From IMG/VR virus record IMGVR_UViG_3300045988_036009: DNA of 58,752 bases; one strand, written 5' to 3'. The DNA is from a virus. Position numbers and translations under genes: made by a program. Shown here one piece after another: positions 5,183-44,182 of this stretch; positions within the stretch are counted from its first letter, which is position 1; each line of letters opens with the position of its first letter. The notes under the pieces were generated by a model. The model was not told the DNA's origin, ran no database searches, and worked only from the letters and a program-made list of their open reading frames with translations.

Positions 5183-5210
5183 AATAAGTTCCTCCTTAAA
5201 TTATCTTTTC

Positions 5211-5235
5211 ATTATATAACGTGTAATTTCTGCGG
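5211..5235 (-). promoter_or_regulatory. Conserved promoter/leader cassette, copy P1
   Basis: Minus strand reads CCGCAGAAATTACA-CGTTA-TATAAT-GAAAAGATAATTTAAGGAGG-N9-ATG(5182). Overlaps the 3' end of 5212..5493. Confidence 0.65.
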
Positions 5236-5493
5236 AGGCATACCTTTCCAGCAGTCCTCTAAAGGAGCTCCTACAGGAACCGCTAGCAATTTATACTTCT
5301 TGCGAATATCGTTGATCTGTCTATAGATCTCACGAATACGCCATCTCGCCCAATCGCTTGGTCTAAATGTCCATCGTATACCATTCCACCGATGGATTGC
5401 ATCGCTAATAGTATCATAATATACATTAGTACTATCAAACAATAAATAAATCATATCTGTGTCGTTCAAATTAGTATACTTAATTGCTCCCAT
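5212..5493 (-). CDS. Hypothetical protein
   Basis: Start moved to the ATG at 5493 (MGAIKYTNL...), preceded by CAGGAGGGTAAT, 1 nt after the upstream stop. Confidence 0.6.
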   Translation of the reverse strand: MGAIKYTNLNDTDMIYLLFDSTNVYYDTISDAIHRWNGIRWTFRPSDWARWRIREIYRQINDIRKKYKLLAVPVGAPLEDCWKGMPPQKLHVI

Positions 5494-5494
5494 A

Positions 5495-5704
5495 TTACCC
5501 TCCTGGAAATTGTACTTTACGATTGATATTAACCAATACCTCATTATGATAGTCCAACAGCTTTTGCTGAGATTCTATCTTATACTCTAGTTTCTCTATT
5601 CGCTTGTCTTGGTCGGCAATTATACCGGCCATGATTAAATATAGTATGAAGAATCCCACTATACAAAATCCTATTAGTTTGAAATTACGATCTTCCAAAT
5701 CCAT
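5495..5704 (-). CDS. Small N-terminal-TM plus coiled-coil protein
   Basis: 69-aa ORF, GGAGG RBS. TM segment LIGFCIVGFFILYLIMAGII, then KRIEKLEYKIESQQKLLDYHNEVL. Confidence 0.6.
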   Translation of the reverse strand: MDLEDRNFKLIGFCIVGFFILYLIMAGIIADQDKRIEKLEYKIESQQKLLDYHNEVLVNINRKVQFPGG

Positions 5705-5720
5705 CTCTAACCTCCATTCT

Positions 5721-5754
5721 AAAAAAAATAAAGCTAGGTGTATAACCTAACTTT
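5721..5754 (-). terminator. Rho-independent terminator
   Basis: Minus strand reads AAAGTTAGG-TTATACA-CCTAGCTTT followed by ATTTTTTTT. Overlaps the stop codon of 5753..5950. Confidence 0.7.
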
Positions 5755-5950
5755 ATTTTTGATCTGTATTTGCAAATCGCAACACATTAACAGCAATAAT
5801 ACAAAGTCCTCCAACAATAACAGTTCCGTCTACCATCCCTTGAGCAAAACCTTTCATGCAACCTTTAACTAAGCTGTCTTCAGGTTTAACCTCAAGTTTA
5901 GTACCTTCGTAATTGTATAGTCCAAATAGACCTTTATTAATATTGAACAT
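5753..5950 (-). CDS. Small hydrophobic-C-terminus protein
   Basis: Start moved to the ATG at 5950 (MFNINKGLFG...), which carries the cassette RBS AAAGGAGGAACATATT. C-terminal GTVIVGGLCIIAVNVL is hydrophobic. Confidence 0.6.
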   Translation of the reverse strand: MFNINKGLFGLYNYEGTKLEVKPEDSLVKGCMKGFAQGMVDGTVIVGGLCIIAVNVLRFANTDQK

Positions 5951-5978
5951 AATATGTTCCTCCTTTAAATATCTTTTC

Positions 5979-6005
5979 ATTATAGTGTTTGTAATTTCTG
6001 CGAAA
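5979..6005 (-). promoter_or_regulatory. Conserved promoter/leader cassette, copy P2
   Basis: Minus strand reads TTTCGCAGAAATTACA-AACAC-TATAAT-GAAAAGATATTTAAAGGAGG-N8-ATG(5950). Starts right after the stop of 6006..6440. Confidence 0.65.
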
Positions 6006-6440
6006 CTAATATACTTTAGCAAAATCGTATAAGTCACTATCCGACATATACTCGCCTTTGTTGTTAACACTCAACCTAGGGAATTGCATCTCCCCAGAGT
6101 CGATAATATCGCCAAGAGTATCTACATACGCCCTAACCACCATTAGTAAGTTAGGTGCGTCTTTCTTAGATACAAACGCCGTCTGAGCTGTTAGATTCGG
6201 ATTAGGGTTCGGTGTGTGAATATAGATCCCATCGAAATATGATCGATCTGGATCCACGTAACCACGCAACACAATAAGTTGGTCATTAACCGTCATGTTG
6301 ATATATAACTCAATCCTATCTAACTTCTCGTTGTACTCACCCATAATATACTTATATTTAATTGAATATACTGTAGGGATTCTACGAATATTTCCTCTTG
6401 GCTTTCCTTTAGTCTTCTTTCTGACTTTGCTTACTGCCAT
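6006..6440 (-). CDS. Hypothetical basic-N-terminus protein
   Basis: Start moved to the ATG at 6440 (MAVSKVRKKTKGKPRG...), preceded by CAAAGGAGGTAAT. Confidence 0.6.
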   Translation of the reverse strand: MAVSKVRKKTKGKPRGNIRRIPTVYSIKYKYIMGEYNEKLDRIELYINMTVNDQLIVLRGYVDPDRSYFDGIYIHTPNPNPNLTAQTAFVSKKDAPNLLMVVRAYVDTLGDIIDSGEMQFPRLSVNNKGEYMSDSDLYDFAKVY

Positions 6441-6457
6441 ATTACCTCCTTTGACAG

Positions 6458-6481
6458 AAAAAAAAGAGGACAATTGTCCTC
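6458..6481 (-). terminator. Rho-independent terminator directly abutting the RBS of 6006..6440
   Basis: Minus strand reads GAGGACAATTGTCCTC followed by TTTTTTTT, then CTGTCAAAGGAGGTAAT-ATG. Lies 6 nt after the stop of 6488..6853. Confidence 0.75.
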
Positions 6482-6487
6482 GTAGAA

Positions 6488-6853
6488 TTATTTGTGCATA
6501 CTGAATAATTTAGCAGTCAATACCTCAACACCGATATACCAATGCCAATAAATTCGCCATACGGCCCAAATATCACCCGTGTCTTCATAGTGAAATACGT
6601 TTGCCATAATTCGGCTTACGTTGTATTCGATCTTAGAAAGAATCTTAAATTCCTTCTGACCCACAACATGCGCCTTATAAACAGACATTTCAATTTCCTG
6701 TGCAGTATCACGGATAAGTTCAATAGCCTTATCACGTTCCTTATTGTCAATTAGTTTTCGAATAAGTCCTGACCTTTTATTTACAATACGTTTAAGTAAT
6801 AAACCTACGCGTACATAATTGTCGTCTTTTGTGAAAGTTCGTGTATATAGCAT
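6488..6853 (-). CDS. Hypothetical protein
   Basis: 121-aa ORF served by cassette copy P3 and AAAGGAGG RBS. Confidence 0.65.
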   Translation of the reverse strand: MLYTRTFTKDDNYVRVGLLLKRIVNKRSGLIRKLIDNKERDKAIELIRDTAQEIEMSVYKAHVVGQKEFKILSKIEYNVSRIMANVFHYEDTGDIWAVWRIYWHWYIGVEVLTAKLFSMHK

Positions 6854-6879
6854 AATTGCTACCTCCTTTATATCTTTTC

Positions 6880-6909
6880 ATTATAGCACTTGTAAAGAGT
6901 GCGAAAAAA
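6880..6909 (-). promoter_or_regulatory. Conserved promoter/leader cassette, copy P3 (diverged upstream block)
   Basis: Minus strand reads TTTTTTCGCACTCTTTACA-AGTGC-TATAAT-GAAAAGATATAAAGGAGG-N8-ATG(6853). Confidence 0.6.
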
Positions 6910-6978
6910 GAAGAAGAGATGGAGTTGAACCATCGACAACCGTGGTGTTCGGTGCTCTCCCGCTGAGCTATCTTCTTC
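6910..6978 (-). ncRNA. Degenerate tRNA-like element (canonical acceptor, D and T arms; shortened anticodon arm)
   Basis: Minus strand reads (G)AAGAAGA-TA-GCTC-AGCGGGA-GAGC-ACCG-AACACCA-CGGT-TGTC-GATGG-TTCAACT-CCATC-TCTTCTT-(C), then TTTTTT. There is a perfect 7-8 bp acceptor helix and textbook TAGCTCAGCGGGAGAGC and GGTTCAACTCC boxes. Only 19 nt separate the D and T stems, where 22-23 are expected, so the anticodon stem is 3-4 bp and the loop AACACCA lacks U33. Confidence 0.5.
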
Positions 6979-7010
6979 ATTATAGTGTGTGTAATTTATG
7001 CGAAAAAAAA
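6979..7010 (-). promoter_or_regulatory. Conserved promoter/leader cassette, copy P4 (abuts the tRNA-like element)
   Basis: Minus strand reads TTTTTTTTCGCATAAATTACA-CACAC-TATAAT-G, followed immediately by AAGAAGATAGCTC. There is no RBS and no ORF. Confidence 0.55.
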
Positions 7011-7082
7011 GAATAGGCTATAAATTTAACCATCCGGAATCGAACCGGCATTTATATAAGCTTCCTCTCGCGGTACCTATCC
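7011..7082 (-). ncRNA. 72-nt stem-closed structured RNA candidate containing a tRNA T-arm-like hairpin
   Basis: Minus strand reads GGATAGG...TATAAAT-GCCGGTTCGATTCCGG-ATGGTTAA-ATTTATA-G-CCTATTC followed by TTTTTTTT. The outer 7-bp helix is GGATAGG/CCTATTC and the inner 7-bp helix is TATAAAT/ATTTATA. The GGTTCGATTCC box is present. It begins 5-6 nt after the -10 of P5 and has no ORF. Confidence 0.45.
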
Positions 7083-7087
7083 TCTTC

Positions 7088-7118
7088 ATTATAGTGTATG
7101 TAATTTCTGCGAAAAAAA
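7088..7118 (-). promoter_or_regulatory. Conserved promoter/leader cassette, copy P5
   Basis: Minus strand reads TTTTTTTCGCAGAAATTACA-TACAC-TATAAT-GAAGAGGATAGG. The T-run is shared with the terminator of 7143..7559. Confidence 0.6.
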
Positions 7119-7137
7119 GAAAGGGACTTGTGTCCCT
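7112..7137 (-). terminator. Rho-independent terminator
   Basis: Minus strand reads GGGAC-ACAA-GTCCC followed by TTTCTTTTTTT, 5 nt after the stop of 7143..7559. Confidence 0.7.
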
Positions 7138-7142
7138 CAACT

Positions 7143-7559
7143 CTATAGTGATTTATAGAAGTTAACTAATTCATCAGTATCTTTCTCAACTTCTTTAACT
7201 CGTTGATTAATTTGCTCACAAATTTCTTTTACTTCCTTTTCATCAATATCGTTGATTTTCACAAATCCCATTTCTAGATTAGTAGAAATATTTTCCATTG
7301 TGTTCCATGTATCATATACTTTGTAACTACGTGTAAACACTTCTTCATAAGTAACGCAATCCAATAAAGTTTTGAGTTCGCTTCTTATTCTTTTATAAAG
7401 ATTTCGATAATATTCTTTAATGTATAAACTAGCAGTACTATGCGCTAGTCCAATACTCATTAATTTCTCTAACATCTTTTCTAAGTCATAATCCTCGTAC
7501 ATCAAAGCTAATTTGATCATGTTTTCTTGATTTAGTGTAAGTTGTTGTTTTTCAGTCAT
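7143..7559 (-). CDS. Hypothetical protein
   Basis: 138-aa ORF served by cassette copy P6 (AAGGAGGG RBS). Confidence 0.7.
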   Translation of the reverse strand: MTEKQQLTLNQENMIKLALMYEDYDLEKMLEKLMSIGLAHSTASLYIKEYYRNLYKRIRSELKTLLDCVTYEEVFTRSYKVYDTWNTMENISTNLEMGFVKINDIDEKEVKEICEQINQRVKEVEKDTDELVNFYKSL

Positions 7560-7588
7560 GATAATGACCCTCCTTAAATTATCTTTTC

Positions 7589-7617
7589 ATTATCAACCCT
7601 GTAATTTCTGCGAAAAA
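7589..7617 (-). promoter_or_regulatory. Conserved promoter/leader cassette, copy P6
   Basis: Minus strand reads TTTTTCGCAGAAATTACA-GGGTT-GATAAT-GAAAAGATAATTTAAGGAGGG-N9-ATG(7559). Confidence 0.6.
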
Positions 7618-7644: not shown

Positions 7645-8184
7645 TTAGTAACGTAGAGGATCGATAGCTCTCTTATATTTGGTCTTAGCTTTGCTCTTTT
7701 CCAGTTTGGTGGTAGCGCTAGCTTTTTCCTTTTTATATTGAGCTTTAGCCGCTTTATTCTTTTCTAGGTTACGAACTTGCCGCTCGAGTAATCCGGTTGC
7801 GCTATTATTCTTCTTATAGTTGTCCTTAAGTTTCTTAAGCGCAGCATTACGAGATTCCCAGTTCTTATTCTCTAGTTTGGCAATCTTCTTATTATCGCCT
7901 TTCATACGACCAATACGATCTTCCTTATCCGCGTATTCAGCTTTCAATTTCTTCTTATCAGCCTTATACTTCTTCTTGTCACGCCAATATTGCAAATTGG
8001 TTTTTGTTTTTGCTTTTGATGATAGAAATGGGTGCGTGTAAGAATTAACATAAATCTTACCGACGTTACCAGCAGCTCGAACTGCTTTACGAACACCCCA
8101 CTTCATACCTTTTGTTCCGAAATGAAGTAATACATCATCCATATTATCAACGTGGACCAATTGACCTTCTTCAATCAGTTTCAT
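7645..8184 (-). CDS. Basic protein of the HxGxKGMKWG-motif family (member E)
   Basis: 179 aa. N-terminus ...DDVLLHFGTKGMKWGVRK followed by a Lys-rich (KKKYKADKKKLKAEY...) tail. The ATGA start overlaps the endolysin stop. Confidence 0.75.
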   Translation of the reverse strand: MKLIEEGQLVHVDNMDDVLLHFGTKGMKWGVRKAVRAAGNVGKIYVNSYTHPFLSSKAKTKTNLQYWRDKKKYKADKKKLKAEYADKEDRIGRMKGDNKKIAKLENKNWESRNAALKKLKDNYKKNNSATGLLERQVRNLEKNKAAKAQYKKEKASATTKLEKSKAKTKYKRAIDPLRY

Positions 8185-8918
8185 AGTTTACCTTCCATAT
8201 CTTCAGCATCATCAAGATAGTTGTCGTCAATCCATTGCGCAGATTGCGGTGAACCGATACGAGAATATCCGTCAACCTTCTCATAGACACGCACACGAGA
8301 ACCTTTCTTGAATAGTTCTTTTTCTTCAGCACCAGCGAATGGTTGAGCTTCAACCCAATAGTCCTCTGTGATAGTCGCTTCATAATATGGTTGTTCGCTT
8401 GATGGTAGATGTGTACCAACATTCAACTCATGCTCGAAGCTGTTTTCAGCCATCTCAAGTTGAGGAGGGTTAGGGACACGAGCTCCACCGTTGTAACGAT
8501 AGAAGTAGAAGTATGGTTGACCATTATAACCCCAGATTTCATCGTGGTTATTTCGAGTAATACCATTATATCCATAGTTACAGTGGATAATAGTTCCTTC
8601 TGAGTCTAGGAAAATACCTGTGTGACCAAATGCCCCAGCGGAATATCCTTTTTGTCCCCAGATGAAAATATCACCAGCTTGTACGTCAGCTTCCTCATTT
8701 TCTGCCAACAGTACCCAGCCATTTTGCAACAACCAGTCGTGCATTGTCTCAGTCGAACAAGGCCAAGGTAGAGTACTCATGCCACCGGCTACACCAGCAT
8801 AATACATTGATGATGAACAGTCAAATGAGTCTGGGCCTGTACGATGCAACATGGAATATGTCACTCGTCCTTCACGAGCGACCATCCATGCAATCATCAG
8901 TGCGGGATTTACTGTCAT
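8181..8918 (-). CDS. Endolysin: Pal-type (Amidase_5 family) N-acetylmuramoyl-L-alanine amidase with C-terminal SH3-like wall-binding domain
   Basis: The N-half ...GRVTYSMLHRTGPDSFDCSSSMYYAG...GDIFIWGQKGYSAGAFGHTGIF...IIHCNYGYNGI...GQPYFYFYRY is colinear with the pneumococcal phage Dp-1 Pal amidase module as I remember it. The C-terminal 80 aa look SH3b-like. GGAGGA RBS. Confidence 0.8.
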   Translation of the reverse strand: MTVNPALMIAWMVAREGRVTYSMLHRTGPDSFDCSSSMYYAGVAGGMSTLPWPCSTETMHDWLLQNGWVLLAENEEADVQAGDIFIWGQKGYSAGAFGHTGIFLDSEGTIIHCNYGYNGITRNNHDEIWGYNGQPYFYFYRYNGGARVPNPPQLEMAENSFEHELNVGTHLPSSEQPYYEATITEDYWVEAQPFAGAEEKELFKKGSRVRVYEKVDGYSRIGSPQSAQWIDDNYLDDAEDMEGKL

Positions 8919-38909: not shown

Positions 38910-41522
38910 CTATGATAGATCCTGTACAGTAGACACACTGATACCTAGTGCATCAGCTACTTCTGCATAGGTGTGACCGTTCTTAAGCATGGTCTTAGCA
39001 CGACTAGCAGTAGATAGGCTAATAGACTTCTCTGTACGTGGTGTAGCTAGCTGCTTAACACGATCACTATCAGCGAATCGTAGTACATCAGTTAGCATCT
39101 TACTAGAGACAGCCCCAGATTGAATAGCTTTCCACTCATCATCGTCAATAGAGATGCGTGTAGACTTACCATCAGCACCAGTCTTAACACGGGCTGCTGC
39201 AATAGCCTGTTGTTTAAGCTTCTTGAGCTGGTCTTTGCTCATGTCAGGAGTACGTTTTTCAGCAATAGTCTTGTTAGCCATGAGCTGAGCTTGACGTTCT
39301 CTAGGAGAGTTGTACAAAGCGTCGTTAAGCTTCTTCTGTAGAGACTCAACTTGTGTCTTGTACTTGACTTTAGCATCCTTAGACATGGTCATGTTAGGCG
39401 TCTTGCTAATGATAGACTCACCTTTTGTACGCATCTTACCAAGAGCATTAATGTAATTACCATACATGTTCTCAATAGCTGTACCAGAACCTAGTTTCTT
39501 AGCATCATCTACCATATCAACAATAGGTGTAAATGAAATGGTTTTAGTTTTCTTGATCTTAGGAGCTAATCTAGGATTAGCAGCTAGTTCTTCAGCAGTT
39601 CTTTCCTTATACCAATGCTCGGTCTCACGATAGTCGGTCTTCGATCTAGAAATAAGAGTTGATGCTCCGCTGGATATCTTTCCTGTTACAACATCATAGT
39701 GTTCTTGATATTTCTTTTTAAGCTGGTCTATATTATTCTCTCTTTCAGAACGTTTATAATCCAAGCTATGTTTTTCAGCATCAATAACAACCATTGAATG
39801 TTTAACAGCTCTAGCAATTTCAGATTGAGATGCGCCTTTAAGAGTCATATCAGTAATAAGATTCGATACAACTCCCATTTGTTTTTGCGTATCAATCTTC
39901 GGTGGCTTAGGAGTATAATAACTTTTCGAATCGAAGTTCTTTAATTCTTTTAAAGAACGACTAGTTTTAATTCCATTATTGTTGTTAGGAATAACCATAA
40001 CTGAGTCACCATCGAAATCAGCACCAGATAATTTAGATGCTACAGATGAATCAATACCGATTGCATCCTTTGCACCCTTCATAAATTTAGCCGGGCCTTT
40101 ATCAAGTTTATTATTAACAGTTAATTCTGGTAACTCGAAAATACCACCATGAGGATAACGAACAAGTACAACCTTTTCTCCATTCTTAAAGTTAGGAGCA
40201 TATACTTCATTAGCTTTAATACCAGATAAAGGTAATAATACTTGTCCTTTCATTCTGTCAAACCCAACCATTTTAAGATGTTGTCGTTTAACAGTGAGGC
40301 CATCAACAAAATCCTGCATCATAACTTTCTTGACTACTGGATTTGTTAAGGCATTGATCTCTTCAAACTCTTTCTTTAATTTATCGTATGTCTTTTCGAT
40401 ACGACCTTTAACCAAAGCTGGTGGTTGTTTAGATAAGAATTGTGAAGATAATGTTTTCGACCAAGAATTCCAATCGCCTTCCTCATTAACTTTATTAATA
40501 GCTCCAGCTTGTTTCTTGATCGTTGCACCAAATGGATTATCCGGATCATCTTTTAAAGGTTTGAGAACTTTTTCTTTAGGAGTTCCTTGTTTCTTGTTGG
40601 TGTTGAAAATAACATCGACACCTTTAGGGAAGTCTTTTGGATCTCCATAAATAGCCATACCTTTTAAATAATGAGTTCCGTTTACACCGATACGAACCTG
40701 AGCATATCTGGATTTACCTAAGTCCAAGTCTTTTACTCCTGGACGTAATTCCATTACACCATCTTTATCCGTACCGCCTTGCTCGTCATATCGAATACCT
40801 ACACGTTTCCAATCAATATGTTGAATAGGTTTCAATCCCAGTGAGGATTTACCTTCAGCATCTGTATGAATATGAGGAGGTGTGATTTCATGCTTGTGTT
40901 CCCTAACAACAGCAGGGTCTGCTTCTTTAGTTAACACTTTCATTTCAACCCAGTGATCATCATTTGTAGCATTCTTAACATATACTGTATGCCTGTGATA
41001 TCCTTCGGATTCCAATTGTTGTACAGCACGTTTAAGAGTACTTTCATTCACACCAAGTTGTTGTGCAGAACCTAAACCAACGTCAAGATATGGATTCTTT
41101 TCAATAAGACCTTTAATATCAGTCTTAATTTGTTCCATGCGATTTACATTGTTACGTACTTTCGCATCTAAATTCATACGAACAGTTGATTCAGGAATAC
41201 CCGTTCTACGAGATATCTCAATAGATCCTAAACCTTGATCGGCGAGCTCTTGAATTCGACTAATATTGTATAATCGAATTTCATGCTTAGCAATATTATT
41301 CCGTTTACGGAATTCAGTAGTTGTAATACCGAGCTTCATAGCAATTTGCGTATCAGATAATCCTGATCGCCTGTATTTAACAACTCTGTCGGACCATGAA
41401 GTAGCCCGCTGAAATGAATTCTCGCCAGATCCCCAAGCATATCGTCCACTATGTGGAATACTACCTTGGTGCGGGGTTCCTCTATGTTCGAGCATATCAC
41501 TATATGCTTCTTCCAAGTTCAT
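38910..41522 (-). CDS. Candidate single-subunit two-barrel RNA polymerase (YonO-like) with N- and C-terminal HTH modules
   Basis: 870 aa. aa 499-512 SGADFDGDSVMVIPN (nt 40005..40019 encode DFDGD) resemble the beta-prime loop NADFDGDQMAVH. aa about 455-475 KVVLVRYPHGGIFELPELTV resemble beta-prime LLNRAPTLHRLGIQAFEP. HTH-like segments: LSDTQIAMKLGITTTEFRKR, GSIEISRRTGIPESTVRMNL, LGVNESTLKRAVQQLESEG and C-terminal HTYAEVADALGISVSTVQDLS. Confidence 0.55.
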   Translation of the reverse strand: MNLEEAYSDMLEHRGTPHQGSIPHSGRYAWGSGENSFQRATSWSDRVVKYRRSGLSDTQIAMKLGITTTEFRKRNNIAKHEIRLYNISRIQELADQGLGSIEISRRTGIPESTVRMNLDAKVRNNVNRMEQIKTDIKGLIEKNPYLDVGLGSAQQLGVNESTLKRAVQQLESEGYHRHTVYVKNATNDDHWVEMKVLTKEADPAVVREHKHEITPPHIHTDAEGKSSLGLKPIQHIDWKRVGIRYDEQGGTDKDGVMELRPGVKDLDLGKSRYAQVRIGVNGTHYLKGMAIYGDPKDFPKGVDVIFNTNKKQGTPKEKVLKPLKDDPDNPFGATIKKQAGAINKVNEEGDWNSWSKTLSSQFLSKQPPALVKGRIEKTYDKLKKEFEEINALTNPVVKKVMMQDFVDGLTVKRQHLKMVGFDRMKGQVLLPLSGIKANEVYAPNFKNGEKVVLVRYPHGGIFELPELTVNNKLDKGPAKFMKGAKDAIGIDSSVASKLSGADFDGDSVMVIPNNNNGIKTSRSLKELKNFDSKSYYTPKPPKIDTQKQMGVVSNLITDMTLKGASQSEIARAVKHSMVVIDAEKHSLDYKRSERENNIDQLKKKYQEHYDVVTGKISSGASTLISRSKTDYRETEHWYKERTAEELAANPRLAPKIKKTKTISFTPIVDMVDDAKKLGSGTAIENMYGNYINALGKMRTKGESIISKTPNMTMSKDAKVKYKTQVESLQKKLNDALYNSPRERQAQLMANKTIAEKRTPDMSKDQLKKLKQQAIAAARVKTGADGKSTRISIDDDEWKAIQSGAVSSKMLTDVLRFADSDRVKQLATPRTEKSISLSTASRAKTMLKNGHTYAEVADALGISVSTVQDLS

Positions 41523-42383: not shown

Positions 42384-43519
42384 ATGTTCTCCACCCAATT
42401 CCTTTCATTAAATTTCTTTTTGCTTCGAATGGAGCGTTCGATAGCATCATCAATAGAAGCCGGGGATTTCAAGTAAACGTAGTACAAATCTTTAAAGGAG
42501 GTATTCACTCGATTAATTCGTCCTTCCGATTGCTCCATTATTCGGTAAGAATAGTTAAGCGAGTAGAATAAAATCGTATCAGTAGTAATGCAGTTCCATC
42601 CCTCGGCTCCGGCCGTATATTGCACAAGATATACCCAGGTTTCAGCGTCTGGGATAGCTTCATGCTTTTGACCATTCCATTGATAATATGCCCTATCTAA
42701 TTCTTGACAAATCTCTTTGAGAATATCAAGCTCGTAGGTGTAGTTATAAAAGACAATAACTCTATCTCGAGTCATGATCTCTTGTTTCGCATGAATTCTA
42801 CGGCGCTCACTTGTATTTACAATACGACGAAGCACTTGCGTGAATTCTGATGCGTTCATAATAGGTTCTTCAGTATATGGATTAAACCTACTCTTAACAA
42901 CAGACTGATATAGTTCTTTGTCAAAGTCGGTATTAATATACTTACGATGCAAATTGGTTGTCCTAAAATCTTGCATAGGAACAGCCAAATAACGTCGGAA
43001 CCTTTCTAGTTTATCGGTCTTGTGATATCGTCTGATCTGAGGAAACTTAGAATATGGATTGTACTCCACATGTTGATCCACAAAATCAGTTTTGTTTCGA
43101 TAGAAATTATTGGCTATGAAAATACACATCCAATCCATCCAAACATCACCAGGTGTGGCGGTTAACATAATCCAATTGTTCTTACGAGCAATATGTATAA
43201 ATGCTAAACCCCATTTACCATAACCGATTGCGCGTTGTTCGTCAAATATAAAGAATGCGTCTTTCACATCAGTATACTTTTCGATATTGTTCCAGGAATC
43301 AACAACGCCATCAATTCCTAAGGCTTCAAAATCTCTATGCCATTCTCGGTCATTCCTTTTCTTGGCGACCGTGATGATATAGAGAGGTTTATCTATATGG
43401 TTCTCCATATAATAAAATAGGCCGGTCAAGGATTTCCCTGAGCCGACCTTTCCGCACAATACAGAACCGTTATGAAGTCTATCAACCGCCTTTCGTTGAT
43501 AGTCATATAACTCAATCAT
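42347..43519 (-). CDS. SF2 (SNF2/DEAD-like) helicase
   Basis: 390 aa. YDYQRKAVDRL, motif I CGKVGSGKSLTG, motif II FIFDEQR, motif III MLTATPG, C-terminal ...QYTAGAEGWN...EQSEGRINR. Confidence 0.8.
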   Translation of the reverse strand: MIELYDYQRKAVDRLHNGSVLCGKVGSGKSLTGLFYYMENHIDKPLYIITVAKKRNDREWHRDFEALGIDGVVDSWNNIEKYTDVKDAFFIFDEQRAIGYGKWGLAFIHIARKNNWIMLTATPGDVWMDWMCIFIANNFYRNKTDFVDQHVEYNPYSKFPQIRRYHKTDKLERFRRYLAVPMQDFRTTNLHRKYINTDFDKELYQSVVKSRFNPYTEEPIMNASEFTQVLRRIVNTSERRRIHAKQEIMTRDRVIVFYNYTYELDILKEICQELDRAYYQWNGQKHEAIPDAETWVYLVQYTAGAEGWNCITTDTILFYSLNYSYRIMEQSEGRINRVNTSFKDLYYVYLKSPASIDDAIERSIRSKKKFNERNWVENICPNWNEISKSN

Positions 43520-44064
43520 TAATAACCATACTTACGTTCAAGTGGATTTGGAGCTACGTGAATATACGCATTCTTCAAATCAAGACGAGCGTAAGTCCCT
43601 TCATCACTTGGTTCGCGACGACGGATAGTCATATCAACGCATGACATTTCCATTTCATCAATCAATTGGAATTGATCTTCTGTCAAGAACTGACGATCTT
43701 GCGAACATACTGGATCATCAACATCACATACTTCGCCATCATTATCATAAATGAGTGCAATTGATGGAATTGAGAATTTAGTATACACTTTCACCTTGAA
43801 GTAGTAAAATGGTTGATACATGTCAGGGTTTTCAGCCATCTTTTTAGCCATCTCGTCATCTCGTGGTTTAGGCTCCCACAATTTAACGTTAACCCCATAC
43901 TGTTCGGCGAGGATTTGAGCGTCTTCTTCAGACACGACAACGTTAAAATAACGGTCTCCTGTACGATTGTATCGTTCTTCACGTCCTGCGAAGTTTGGTT
44001 TAAAGGCAAACTCAACATCTTCGAGGATAAGTTGATGGTTAGAAGCTTGTAATAATTTTGTCAT
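43519..44064 (-). CDS. Possible ssDNA-binding protein (DUF2815 / T7 gp2.5-like) by module context
   Basis: Start set at the ATG at 44064 (MTKLLQASNHQLILEDVEFAFKPNF...) after AAAGGGA. Sits in the DUF2800/VRR-NUC/SNF2/polymerase module where such SSBs usually occur. The motif match itself is weak. Confidence 0.4.
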   Translation of the reverse strand: MTKLLQASNHQLILEDVEFAFKPNFAGREERYNRTGDRYFNVVVSEEDAQILAEQYGVNVKLWEPKPRDDEMAKKMAENPDMYQPFYYFKVKVYTKFSIPSIALIYDNDGEVCDVDDPVCSQDRQFLTEDQFQLIDEMEMSCVDMTIRRREPSDEGTYARLDLKNAYIHVAPNPLERKYGY

Positions 44065-44155
44065 GATAATGTCCCTTTCTATTTTGACGTGATTGACAAA
44101 TTGCAACAAAAAATAAAAGAAGCGCGAAAATCGTTGAATTTTCTTGTTCCTTTCT

Positions 44156-44182
44156 ATTATGTGCCATGTAATTTCTGCGAAG
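44156..44182 (-). promoter_or_regulatory. Conserved promoter cassette, copy P7 (upstream block intact, leader diverged)
   Basis: Minus strand reads CTTCGCAGAAATTACA-TGGCA-CATAAT, followed by a 91-nt leader containing a T-rich tract before ATG(44064). Confidence 0.55.

Follow-up and report, generated by a model that had tools for sequence, protein, structure and literature searches.

The usual explanation for phage-encoded tRNA genes is codon supply, and lately also the replacement of host tRNAs cut by defence nucleases. Small tRNA-shaped RNAs that have defective or short anticodon arms and are not used in translation include the vtRNAs of murine gammaherpesvirus 68 and the MALAT1 mascRNA, which are eukaryotic products either of RNA polymerase III or of the cleavage of long transcripts by RNase P and RNase Z. 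Another anticodon-less tRNA-like RNA, tmRNA, is paired genetically with the small basic protein SmpB, and the YrlA Y RNA beside Rsr/Ro is a non-coding RNA whose tRNA-like acceptor, D and T elements adjoin a protein partner. Attenuators and type III toxin-antitoxin (TA) systems share the order promoter, RNA, terminator, protein, and type III antitoxin RNAs are tandem 34-36-nt repeats. Here we analysed two structured elements on the minus strand of the IMG/VR virus record IMGVR_UViG_3300045988_036009 (58,752 nt; hereafter the window, meaning this whole stretch), namely a tRNA-like RNA without an anticodon arm and a second RNA (RNA2), which lie within positions 6880-7138 upstream of a gene for a basic 144-aa protein. 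In the literature we found no description of the tRNA-like family, the promoter flush with the RNA or the protein linkage; phage surveys contain generic mentions of 'tRNA or tRNA-like' candidates (PMC10690425). The results show that the cassette tRNA-likes are a previously undescribed, conserved family. We favour the reading that they are trans-acting, non-decoding tRNA mimics that probably act with the linked basic protein, a mechanism to which we give about even chances of being right.

Compared with canonical phage tRNA genes, the window RNA has the same cloverleaf, 7-bp acceptor stem, D-arm GG and T-arm TTCRA and scores above the Rfam threshold, but it differs in its AACACCA loop, a promoter flush with the acceptor, a purine-only 5' strand and a U-tract in place of a trailer or CCA. 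The family as a whole has a tRNA body with a defective anticodon arm that is conserved as such, and in this it resembles the vtRNAs and mascRNA; units in which the tRNA-like RNA and RNA2 would be co-transcribed (L058, L083 and L030; L-numbers denote related loci) recall vtRNA-miRNA units. Unlike these eukaryotic RNAs, the phage cassettes have their own promoter and U-tract, and there is no sequence relationship. The pairing of an anticodon-less RNA with a small basic protein is reminiscent of tmRNA/SmpB, but ARAGORN and Rfam detected no tmRNA or tag reading frame, the AlphaFold2 (AF2) model of the phage protein has no SmpB-fold match and its basic tail is N-terminal. Likewise, the phage RNAs adjoin a protein gene as YrlA does, but they show no Y-RNA family match or long Ro-binding stem, and neither TROVE nor any other Pfam domain was found in the linked protein. 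With ToxIN-like type III TA the locus shares the gene order (promoter, structured RNA, U-tract terminator, promoter-less protein gene) and nothing else, since its RNAs are single tRNA-like units and its protein has no ToxN/AbiQ-like fold or PADLOC match. The RNA-protein arrangement also recalls the E. coli tRNA-tufB operon; homology to that operon, to tmRNA-SmpB or to Y RNA-Ro was not detectable.

A scan of the window against Rfam gave a match to the tRNA family (RF00005) at 6910-6977 on the minus strand (46.2 bits; gathering score 29; E = 9.9e-7 for the whole window). A cloverleaf was also the minimum free energy (MFE) structure, composed of an 8-bp closing helix, a D arm, a T arm and a 4-bp/7-nt hairpin at the 'anticodon' position (z = -2.0 to -2.7). 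An earlier note on this DNA, made from the sequence alone, had proposed a tRNA-like element here, and both the covariance model and the fold bear it out. At permissive E-values, Rfam returned only chance-level matches besides tRNA on 6800-7200, and the family model described below (R1) scored the RNA at 81.4 bits. The elbow residues, GG in the D-loop and TTCRA in the T-loop, are present. ARAGORN reported 0 tRNA and 0 tmRNA genes in the window, rejecting the element because its anticodon arm has only 3-4 bp. The 18-19 nt between the D and T stems leave CCG-AACACCA-CGG, or a 4-bp stem without position 26, and the loop carries A33 and C37; the non-decoding arm described earlier, with neither U33 nor a purine at position 37, is thus as claimed. 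CCA is not encoded, and the U6 tract directly follows position 73. An exact-sequence scan of viral contigs gave no match to the window's AACACCA arm variant. The window RNA also has a G-1:C73 pair (6978 and 6910), which is not kept in the relatives, most of which have U73; G-1:C73 is the hallmark identity element of bacterial histidyl-tRNA synthetase (HisRS). The loop (6943-6949) contains CAC, which is a His codon and not the His anticodon.

Short inter-promoter units of the related loci share the 5' half (GAAGAAGATAGCTCAGCGGGAGAGCA) and the T arm of the window RNA and differ in the hairpin at the anticodon position, where the replacements include CGCA-GAAA-TGCG, CGCA-TAAA-TGCG, TCCTG-ATTATT-CAGGA and TCCG-GCATCATA-CGGA. 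Across the cassette tRNA-likes the arm is replaced by GAAA, GAGA, UAAA or AUAU tetraloops, 6-nt loops or long stems. A family covariance model consisting of the cloverleaf core, with the anticodon-position arm kept unpaired, found 78 elements in the related loci. The roughly 100 related oral phage contigs, of ~57 kb, hold more than 70 homologous cassette tRNA-likes. At least five types could be distinguished: A, that of the window; B, with a 6-bp covarying stem and the loop (U/A)GCGAGAUGC; C, with a long stem, an AUAU loop and a hairpin inserted in the D-loop; D, with CCGG-UAUAAU-CCGG; and E, with UCCA-GAAA-UGGA. On the model-guided alignment, 95.3% of the helix cells pair, compared with 72.2% in shuffles and 42-59% when the 3' partners were slid, and compensatory changes occur in 13/16 core pairs (acceptor, D and T), values reached by 0/500 shuffles. 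The elbow residues (D-loop GG, T-loop GTNCRA) are kept in 34 of the 40 distinct cassette sequences. A canonical arm (5-bp stem, 7-nt loop, U33 and a purine at 37) was found in none of these 40, whereas all five non-cassette tRNAs of GC-richer relatives have one; these ordinary tRNAs have normal leaders and G-C-rich acceptor stems and lack the flush promoter and the U-tract. Promoter and U-tract are intact in all cassettes. In 185,579 genomes the D-arm and T-loop combination was matched only 3 times, once on a phage-sized contig, and a host-tRNA origin was rejected, as no sampled bacterial tRNA shares it. Together, the covariation, the elbow conservation and the missing canonical arms speak against a decaying gene and against a decoder alike, and they favour selection for a body that is shaped like a tRNA but lacks an anticodon. 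In type C (L064, L073, L075, L006, L010 and L098), the D-loop hairpin is, for example, GTGTGGATATTTATCCATAT, and the 7-9-bp 'anticodon' stem ends in an AUAU cap or a larger insertion. ARAGORN calls the L010, L098 and L102 versions 97-nt tRNA-Gly(ccc), probably a mis-annotation.

The promoters that separate these elements (P3-P5) are copies of a 27-nt unit, CGCAGAAATTACAnnnnnTATAATGAA, of which the window holds nine (58048, 44153, 7586, 7085, 6976, 6877, 5976, 5208 and 2761). An exact-pattern scan found the unit in 104 viral-contig stretches, mostly on contigs of ~55-58 kb, and at a relaxed match (<=4 mismatches) there were 415 copies in the related loci. The unit has a perfect TATAAT without a -35 hexamer, instead of which a conserved CGCAGAAATTACA stands 5 nt 5' of TATAAT; the promoter scan does not list P3-P5. 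The acceptor 5' strand begins 1 nt after the TATAAT of P4, in agreement with the earlier note. Of the 49 unique RNA cassettes, 32 have an MFE closing helix whose 5' strand opens with the nucleotide next to TATAAT (always G in these helix-flush cassettes) and whose 3' strand stops just short of the U-tract; of the 232 unique mRNA cassettes, 37 have a Shine-Dalgarno (SD) core that begins only 3-4 nt after TATAAT. Because the acceptor pairs covary, the 5'-most included, the acceptor 5' strand must belong to the RNA, and a sigma-70-style start ~7 nt downstream would remove both the start of the closing helix and the SD; the G that immediately follows TATAAT is therefore the most likely transcription start. 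This start is a third option that fits better than either horn of the dilemma posed previously, in which the cassette leader was tRNA-derived or the transcripts began inside the acceptor stem. The promoter's preferred GAARRR start would then have shaped the acceptor 5' strand, with the 3' strand covarying, and the closing helix with U6-U8 would stand in for the terminator hairpin of the mRNA cassettes.

A candidate reader of this promoter, which is probably not of the sigma-70 type, is an 870-aa protein (38910-41522, minus strand) with a weak Pfam RdRP match, several helix-turn-helix (HTH) segments, a C-terminal sigma70-region-4-like HTH and, around aa 500, the two-barrel RNA polymerase (RNAP) catalytic motif GADFDGD. 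Judged by these features it is a predicted YonO/crAss-like single-subunit RNAP fused to DNA-binding domains. Homologs are present in both related loci that reach far enough, at full length in L094 (41% identity, GC 0.45) and in part in L081. YonO is without the flap and lid elements that serve hairpin-dependent termination, and its promoter is not known (PMC5467207).

In RNA2, an outer helix (7076-7083/7010-7017) and an inner helix (7050-7056/7019-7025) are nested on the minus strand around the T-arm-like hairpin GCCGG-TTCGATT-CCGGA (7033-7049) and a conserved TGGTTAA (7026-7032), so that the helices and the hairpin previously described are present. Its folding energy alone is no better than that of shuffles (z = -0.7; -2.0 with flanks), and support for RNA2 comes from homologs. 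Identical copies occur in L027, L135, L137 and L141, and three diverged subtypes in L058, in L083/L030 and in L022/L035/L047/L052. All subtypes have the invariant outer helix ATAGG/CCTAT, an inner helix around the T-arm-like hairpin (GGTTCGATNCC or GGTGCGATTCC) and a conserved YGGTTAA, and some carry an extra variable hairpin. In six ~80-nt variants, a small sample from which the structure itself was derived, 95.2% of cells pair, three pairs show compensatory changes, and the covariation score was 0.171 versus 0.059 in shuffles (1/500), with slid controls collapsing. RNA2 reached only 12.5 bits on the tRNA-like family model, which ruled it out as a plain tRNA-like RNA, and it matched no Rfam family; a metagenome scan returned the same subtypes and chance matches, nothing else. 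RNA2 represents a second family, narrower than the first, with a T-arm hairpin at its core. The long-range helix that RNAalifold put forward (5' CCGCGAG with the T-arm 3' strand) was rejected, having three mismatches in the L022, L035 and L047 variants. The middle pair of the T-arm hairpin (alignment A6, columns 31/43) is purine-purine (G-A, A-A or A-G) in the six long variants (L083, L030, L022, L035, L047 and L052) and C-G in the window's subtype.

In the relatives, a U-tract, an SD and the gene for a basic protein of ~145-155 aa (MPVSKKRK... or MAVSKTRKK...) come after every cassette RNA type, RNA2 included, with no promoter between, a linkage that the earlier note had not noticed. Among 57 loci with enough upstream sequence, the tRNA-like match ends 18-33 nt before the start codon of this gene in 33, and in most of the others it lies 100-480 nt upstream, with another cassette RNA or an inserted gene between; in L058, L083 and L030, RNA2 follows the tRNA-like RNA in one cassette directly before the gene. 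The window's protein is 88% identical to the L009 version. Its sole profile match was phrog_1494, to which no function is assigned there, and searches of Pfam, PDB (sequence and profile) and PADLOC gave no match. The family is confined to this phage group. The AF2 model is confident (pLDDT, the predicted local distance difference test score, 82.6) and consists of a disordered basic N-terminal tail and a beta-rich domain that includes one long helix; it had no PDB fold match, and its fold matches in BFVD were uncharacterised phage proteins only. The BFVD entry E7DN95 is one that we take, unverified, to be Gp31 of phage Dp-1 (L124, HQ268735), to which the basic protein is homologous by tblastn. 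None of P0024, P0037 and Dp-1 Gp31 carries a fused Pfam domain, and the N-terminal 'extension' of P0024, the one longer homolog inspected, was rejected as a gene call running through tRNA-like DNA. The tRNA-like RNAs are unannotated in GenBank relatives, and public gene calls (P0024; the OR148986.1 CDS at L105 3579-4109) translate across the tRNA-like DNA and give the basic protein spurious N-terminal extensions.

The genes and RNAs of window positions 5200-7612 reassort as whole cassettes when compared with L009, L017, L027, L137 and L141. The order 138-aa gene, tRNA-like RNA, basic-protein gene is found in L009, L019 and L057, and L017 has the 121-aa gene between the last two; RNA2 directly precedes the basic-protein gene in L027 and L058, and in L141 it lies further upstream, with the tRNA-like RNA before that gene. 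Only the window has the order 138-aa gene, RNA2, tRNA-like RNA, 121-aa gene, basic-protein gene. The 121-aa gene, which has no family match, occurs in L017 and L137, and L009 and L027 either lack it or have it truncated; in the window and L017 it is inserted before the basic-protein gene together with P3 and its hairpin terminator. The conserved junctions between U-tract and CGCAGAAATTACA promoter are likely the recombination points. In L027 the 121-aa gene is reduced to its first ~8 codons, which are joined to its terminator.

Based on these data, we propose that the interval holds two autonomous small-RNA genes (RNAs of ~70-77 nt) of a streptococcal-type phage, each of which would be transcribed from a compact phage-type promoter from the G after TATAAT and would end at its U-tract, with its own 5'/3' closing helix as the terminator stem. 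As this helix joins the 5' and 3' parts, both RNA ends would be buried in it. The RNA at 6910-6978 keeps what makes up the L-shape (acceptor, D arm, T arm and elbow residues) and has a short non-decoding hairpin in place of the anticodon arm, so that it would be unable to read codons. Both RNAs would act in trans, as abundant tRNA-shaped molecules of a shuffled array normally upstream of the basic protein; trans action is consistent with the differing combinations and positions of the tRNA-like RNA and RNA2 among close relatives. Their partner would be a factor for which the body of a tRNA (acceptor, T arm and elbow), and not the anticodon, is the point of recognition, most likely either the linked basic protein, in a ribonucleoprotein (RNP), or a host tRNA-handling or tRNA-targeting factor, for which they would be a decoy or competitor in early infection. 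The tRNA-mimic and structured-small-RNA options raised in the earlier note thus remain viable, and its option of a decaying pair is not supported.

Several points weigh against trans-acting mimicry. The start site, termination, stability and abundance of the RNAs, like their processing, binding partner and decoy or RNP role, are deduced from sequence features; the alignment used for covariation was fitted to the model and its sequences are related; and the AACACCA arm is a singleton (best 87% identity to relatives), so this copy could be drifting. Furthermore, in the window another gene separates the RNA from the basic-protein gene, the basic protein has no recognisable RNA-binding or any known fold, and there is no tRNA-like RNA upstream of Dp-1 Gp31. 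No tRNA-targeting defence or tRNA-repair gene was identified to point at a target, and a decoy would have to compete with a very large cellular tRNA pool. A wider proposal, which we offer tentatively and regard as rather doubtful, is that the tRNA-likes (at least five types), RNA2 and the phrog_1494 protein form a new early-expressed phage system in which decoys or an RNP neutralise host factors that recognise the tRNA body, the RNAs being leaderless, self-terminating transcripts made by the YonO-like RNAP from a promoter abutting position -1. Candidate targets would be tRNA-targeting defence nucleases, acceptor-end-modifying toxins and tRNA-processing enzymes.

Conserved and diversified non-decoding look-alikes of tRNA point to tRNA mimicry as a phage strategy of its own, and the elements are readily testable, because they are short, their promoters and ends are defined, relatives with and without them exist naturally, and there is just one candidate protein partner. 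They also mark a blind spot of annotation, since ARAGORN misses or mislabels them and gene callers read through them, so that they have been systematically overlooked in oral phage genomes. The flush promoters and the two-barrel phage RNAP suggest an uncharacterised transcription system, which, with its exact RNA ends, could become a tool.

Alternatively, the elements could be a cis-acting leader, processing or terminator module that controls the downstream genes, especially that of the promoter-less basic protein, the free RNA being functionless; it could attenuate transcription, recruit RNase P or RNase Z for transcript cleavage, or shield the 5' end of the mRNA. We consider this unlikely. 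The RNA, U-tract and basic-protein SD do stand within 18-33 nt in most relatives, promoter-free, the closing helix with its U-tract is terminator-like, and the order of parts resembles, by analogy, attenuator and type III TA layouts. However, at least five unrelated RNA types fill the slot, often two or three in tandem and often with their own promoters, a whole gene lies between the RNA and the protein gene in the window, L017, L042, L085 and L097, and the RNA is elsewhere in L012 and L016; moreover, a terminator needs no conservation of the D-loop/T-loop elbow. That conservation concerns the body of the RNA, and the anticodon-position arm is its sole hypervariable part, in sequence and length, among otherwise near-identical RNAs. 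This would suit a tRNA scaffold that gives stability and processing to a variable functional hairpin, the loop of which pairs with or is bound by a target, and some loops are conserved within a type, such as (U/A)GCGAGAUGC on its covarying stem. Many arms, however, are minimal GNRA or UAAA tetraloop hairpins of low information content, a complementary target was not identified and the window loop is unique, so that we find the scaffold distinctly improbable.

The leading idea of the earlier note, decaying tRNA pseudogenes that persist by chance between active promoters, is very improbable in light of the family data. An arm 3-4 nt short, without U33 and a purine at 37, the rejection by ARAGORN, the unique window variant and an RNA2 that is barely tRNA-like would all fit decay. 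Yet compensatory changes hold the three core helices family-wide and the elbow is conserved, stable tetraloop hairpins and not random decay replace the arm, and promoters and U-tracts are intact in dozens of phages. A check for intact tRNAs at the locus in relatives, suggested along with that idea, turned up none, and other anticodon-less variants occupy the site. Decoding tRNAs with odd anticodon loops, such as frameshift-promoting or suppressor tRNAs with 6- or 8-nt loops, are scarcely credible, for although ARAGORN calls some relatives 'tRNA-???' (2-base anticodon) or Met/Thr and the window RNA has the G-1:C73 pair and CAC in its loop, no canonical arm was found in the family, several 4-nt tetraloops are unable to present an anticodon, the window stem is 3-4 bp without U33, and acceptor stems are set by the promoter's GAARRR start and not by synthetase identity elements.

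The layout of positions 6880-7138 and the adjoining genes is listed in the table. All elements named in the earlier note lie where it had placed them, in the minus-strand order terminator, P5, RNA2, U8, P4, tRNA-like RNA, U6, P3, mRNA. Its claim that the interval holds no credible open reading frame (ORF) stands as well: only ORFs of <=65 aa occur, one of which begins within a promoter at TATA-ATG, and length differences between homologs are not multiples of three.

Table. Features of the RNA array and the adjoining genes, in minus-strand order; indented rows are parts of the tRNA-like RNA
Feature	Position	Strand	Basis or remark
Terminator of the upstream 138-aa gene (7143-7559)	7112-7138	-	Hairpin 7121-7138 and U-tract; terminator-like site called
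Promoter P5, CGCAGAAATTACATACACTATAATGAA	7085-7111	-	0 mismatches to consensus; TATAAT 7088-7093; most likely start G 7087
RNA2, ~77 nt	7011-7087	-	Predicted fold and homologs in relatives
U8 tract ending RNA2, abuts P4	7003-7010	-	Sequence; same cassette junction pattern recurs in relatives
Promoter P4, CGCATAAATTACACACACTATAATGAA	6976-7002	-	1 mismatch; TATAAT 6979-6984; most likely start G 6978
tRNA-like RNA without anticodon arm (type A)	6910-6978	-	Rfam tRNA, cloverleaf MFE, family model, covariation
 G-1	6978	-	
 Acceptor 5' strand	6971-6977	-	
 D arm	6954-6968	-	
 Short hairpin	6940-6952	-	CCG-AACACCA-CGG
 Variable region	6935-6939	-	
 T arm	6918-6934	-	
 Acceptor 3' strand	6911-6917	-	
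 Position 73	6910	-	C
U6 tract ending the tRNA-like RNA, abuts P3	6904-6909	-	Sequence; terminator-like call on T arm and tail
Promoter P3, diverged copy driving the 121-aa gene	6877-6903	-	4 mismatches to consensus
121-aa gene (MLYTRTF...)	6488-6853	-	ORF; inserted accessory cassette between RNA array and basic-protein gene
Terminator of the 121-aa gene	Hairpin 6466-6481 and U8 tract	-	Terminator call
Basic 144-aa protein gene (MAVSKVRKK...; phrog_1494)	6009-6440	-	Conserved; without its own promoter

The window is a phage genome-sized sequence of ~58.7 kb with all genes on the minus strand. The RNA array lies directly downstream of the endolysin gene (8181-8918), among very short independent transcription units. 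The window lysin resembles lysins of streptococcal phages, a close relative of the window phage was assembled from human saliva, and another relative was binned with an uncultured Streptococcus metagenome-assembled genome.

Dp-1 was tried as a comparator and set aside, as the ~1-kb gap upstream of its Gp31 operon holds repeated TTCGA units and not tRNA-likes. That operon shares no other gene with the window, the neighbouring Tpt1/KptA RNA 2'-phosphotransferase included, and the Dp-1 two-hybrid data were uninformative on the function of the basic protein. In Dp-1, the ~1 kb of unannotated DNA (1260-2300) lies between a promoter (…CCTATAATGAGAAAAAG), which resembles the cassette -10 and start, and the operon running from Gp35 (Tpt1/KptA) to Gp31; its repeated TTCGA units are possibly iterons or an origin, and near 2058 there is an unannotated short ORF with a good SD.

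Many further promoter-to-U-tract RNAs of 75-160 nt were observed in L018, L059, L063, L074, L081, L087, L088, L094, L101 and L001, with a TATAAT-flush 5' end that pairs with the 3' end. The longer cassette RNAs matched no Rfam family in a scan of 20 related loci, and the 75-160-nt RNAs amount to a repertoire of uncharacterised phage small RNAs. In the replication module of the window itself (44105-44179, minus strand), a cassette promoter with 3 mismatches precedes a ~46-nt hairpin RNA (AGAAAGGAAC...GCGCTTCTTTT) with a U-tract behind it; this RNA lies directly 5' of the gene for a single-stranded DNA-binding protein (43519-44109) and may be a small RNA or an attenuator.

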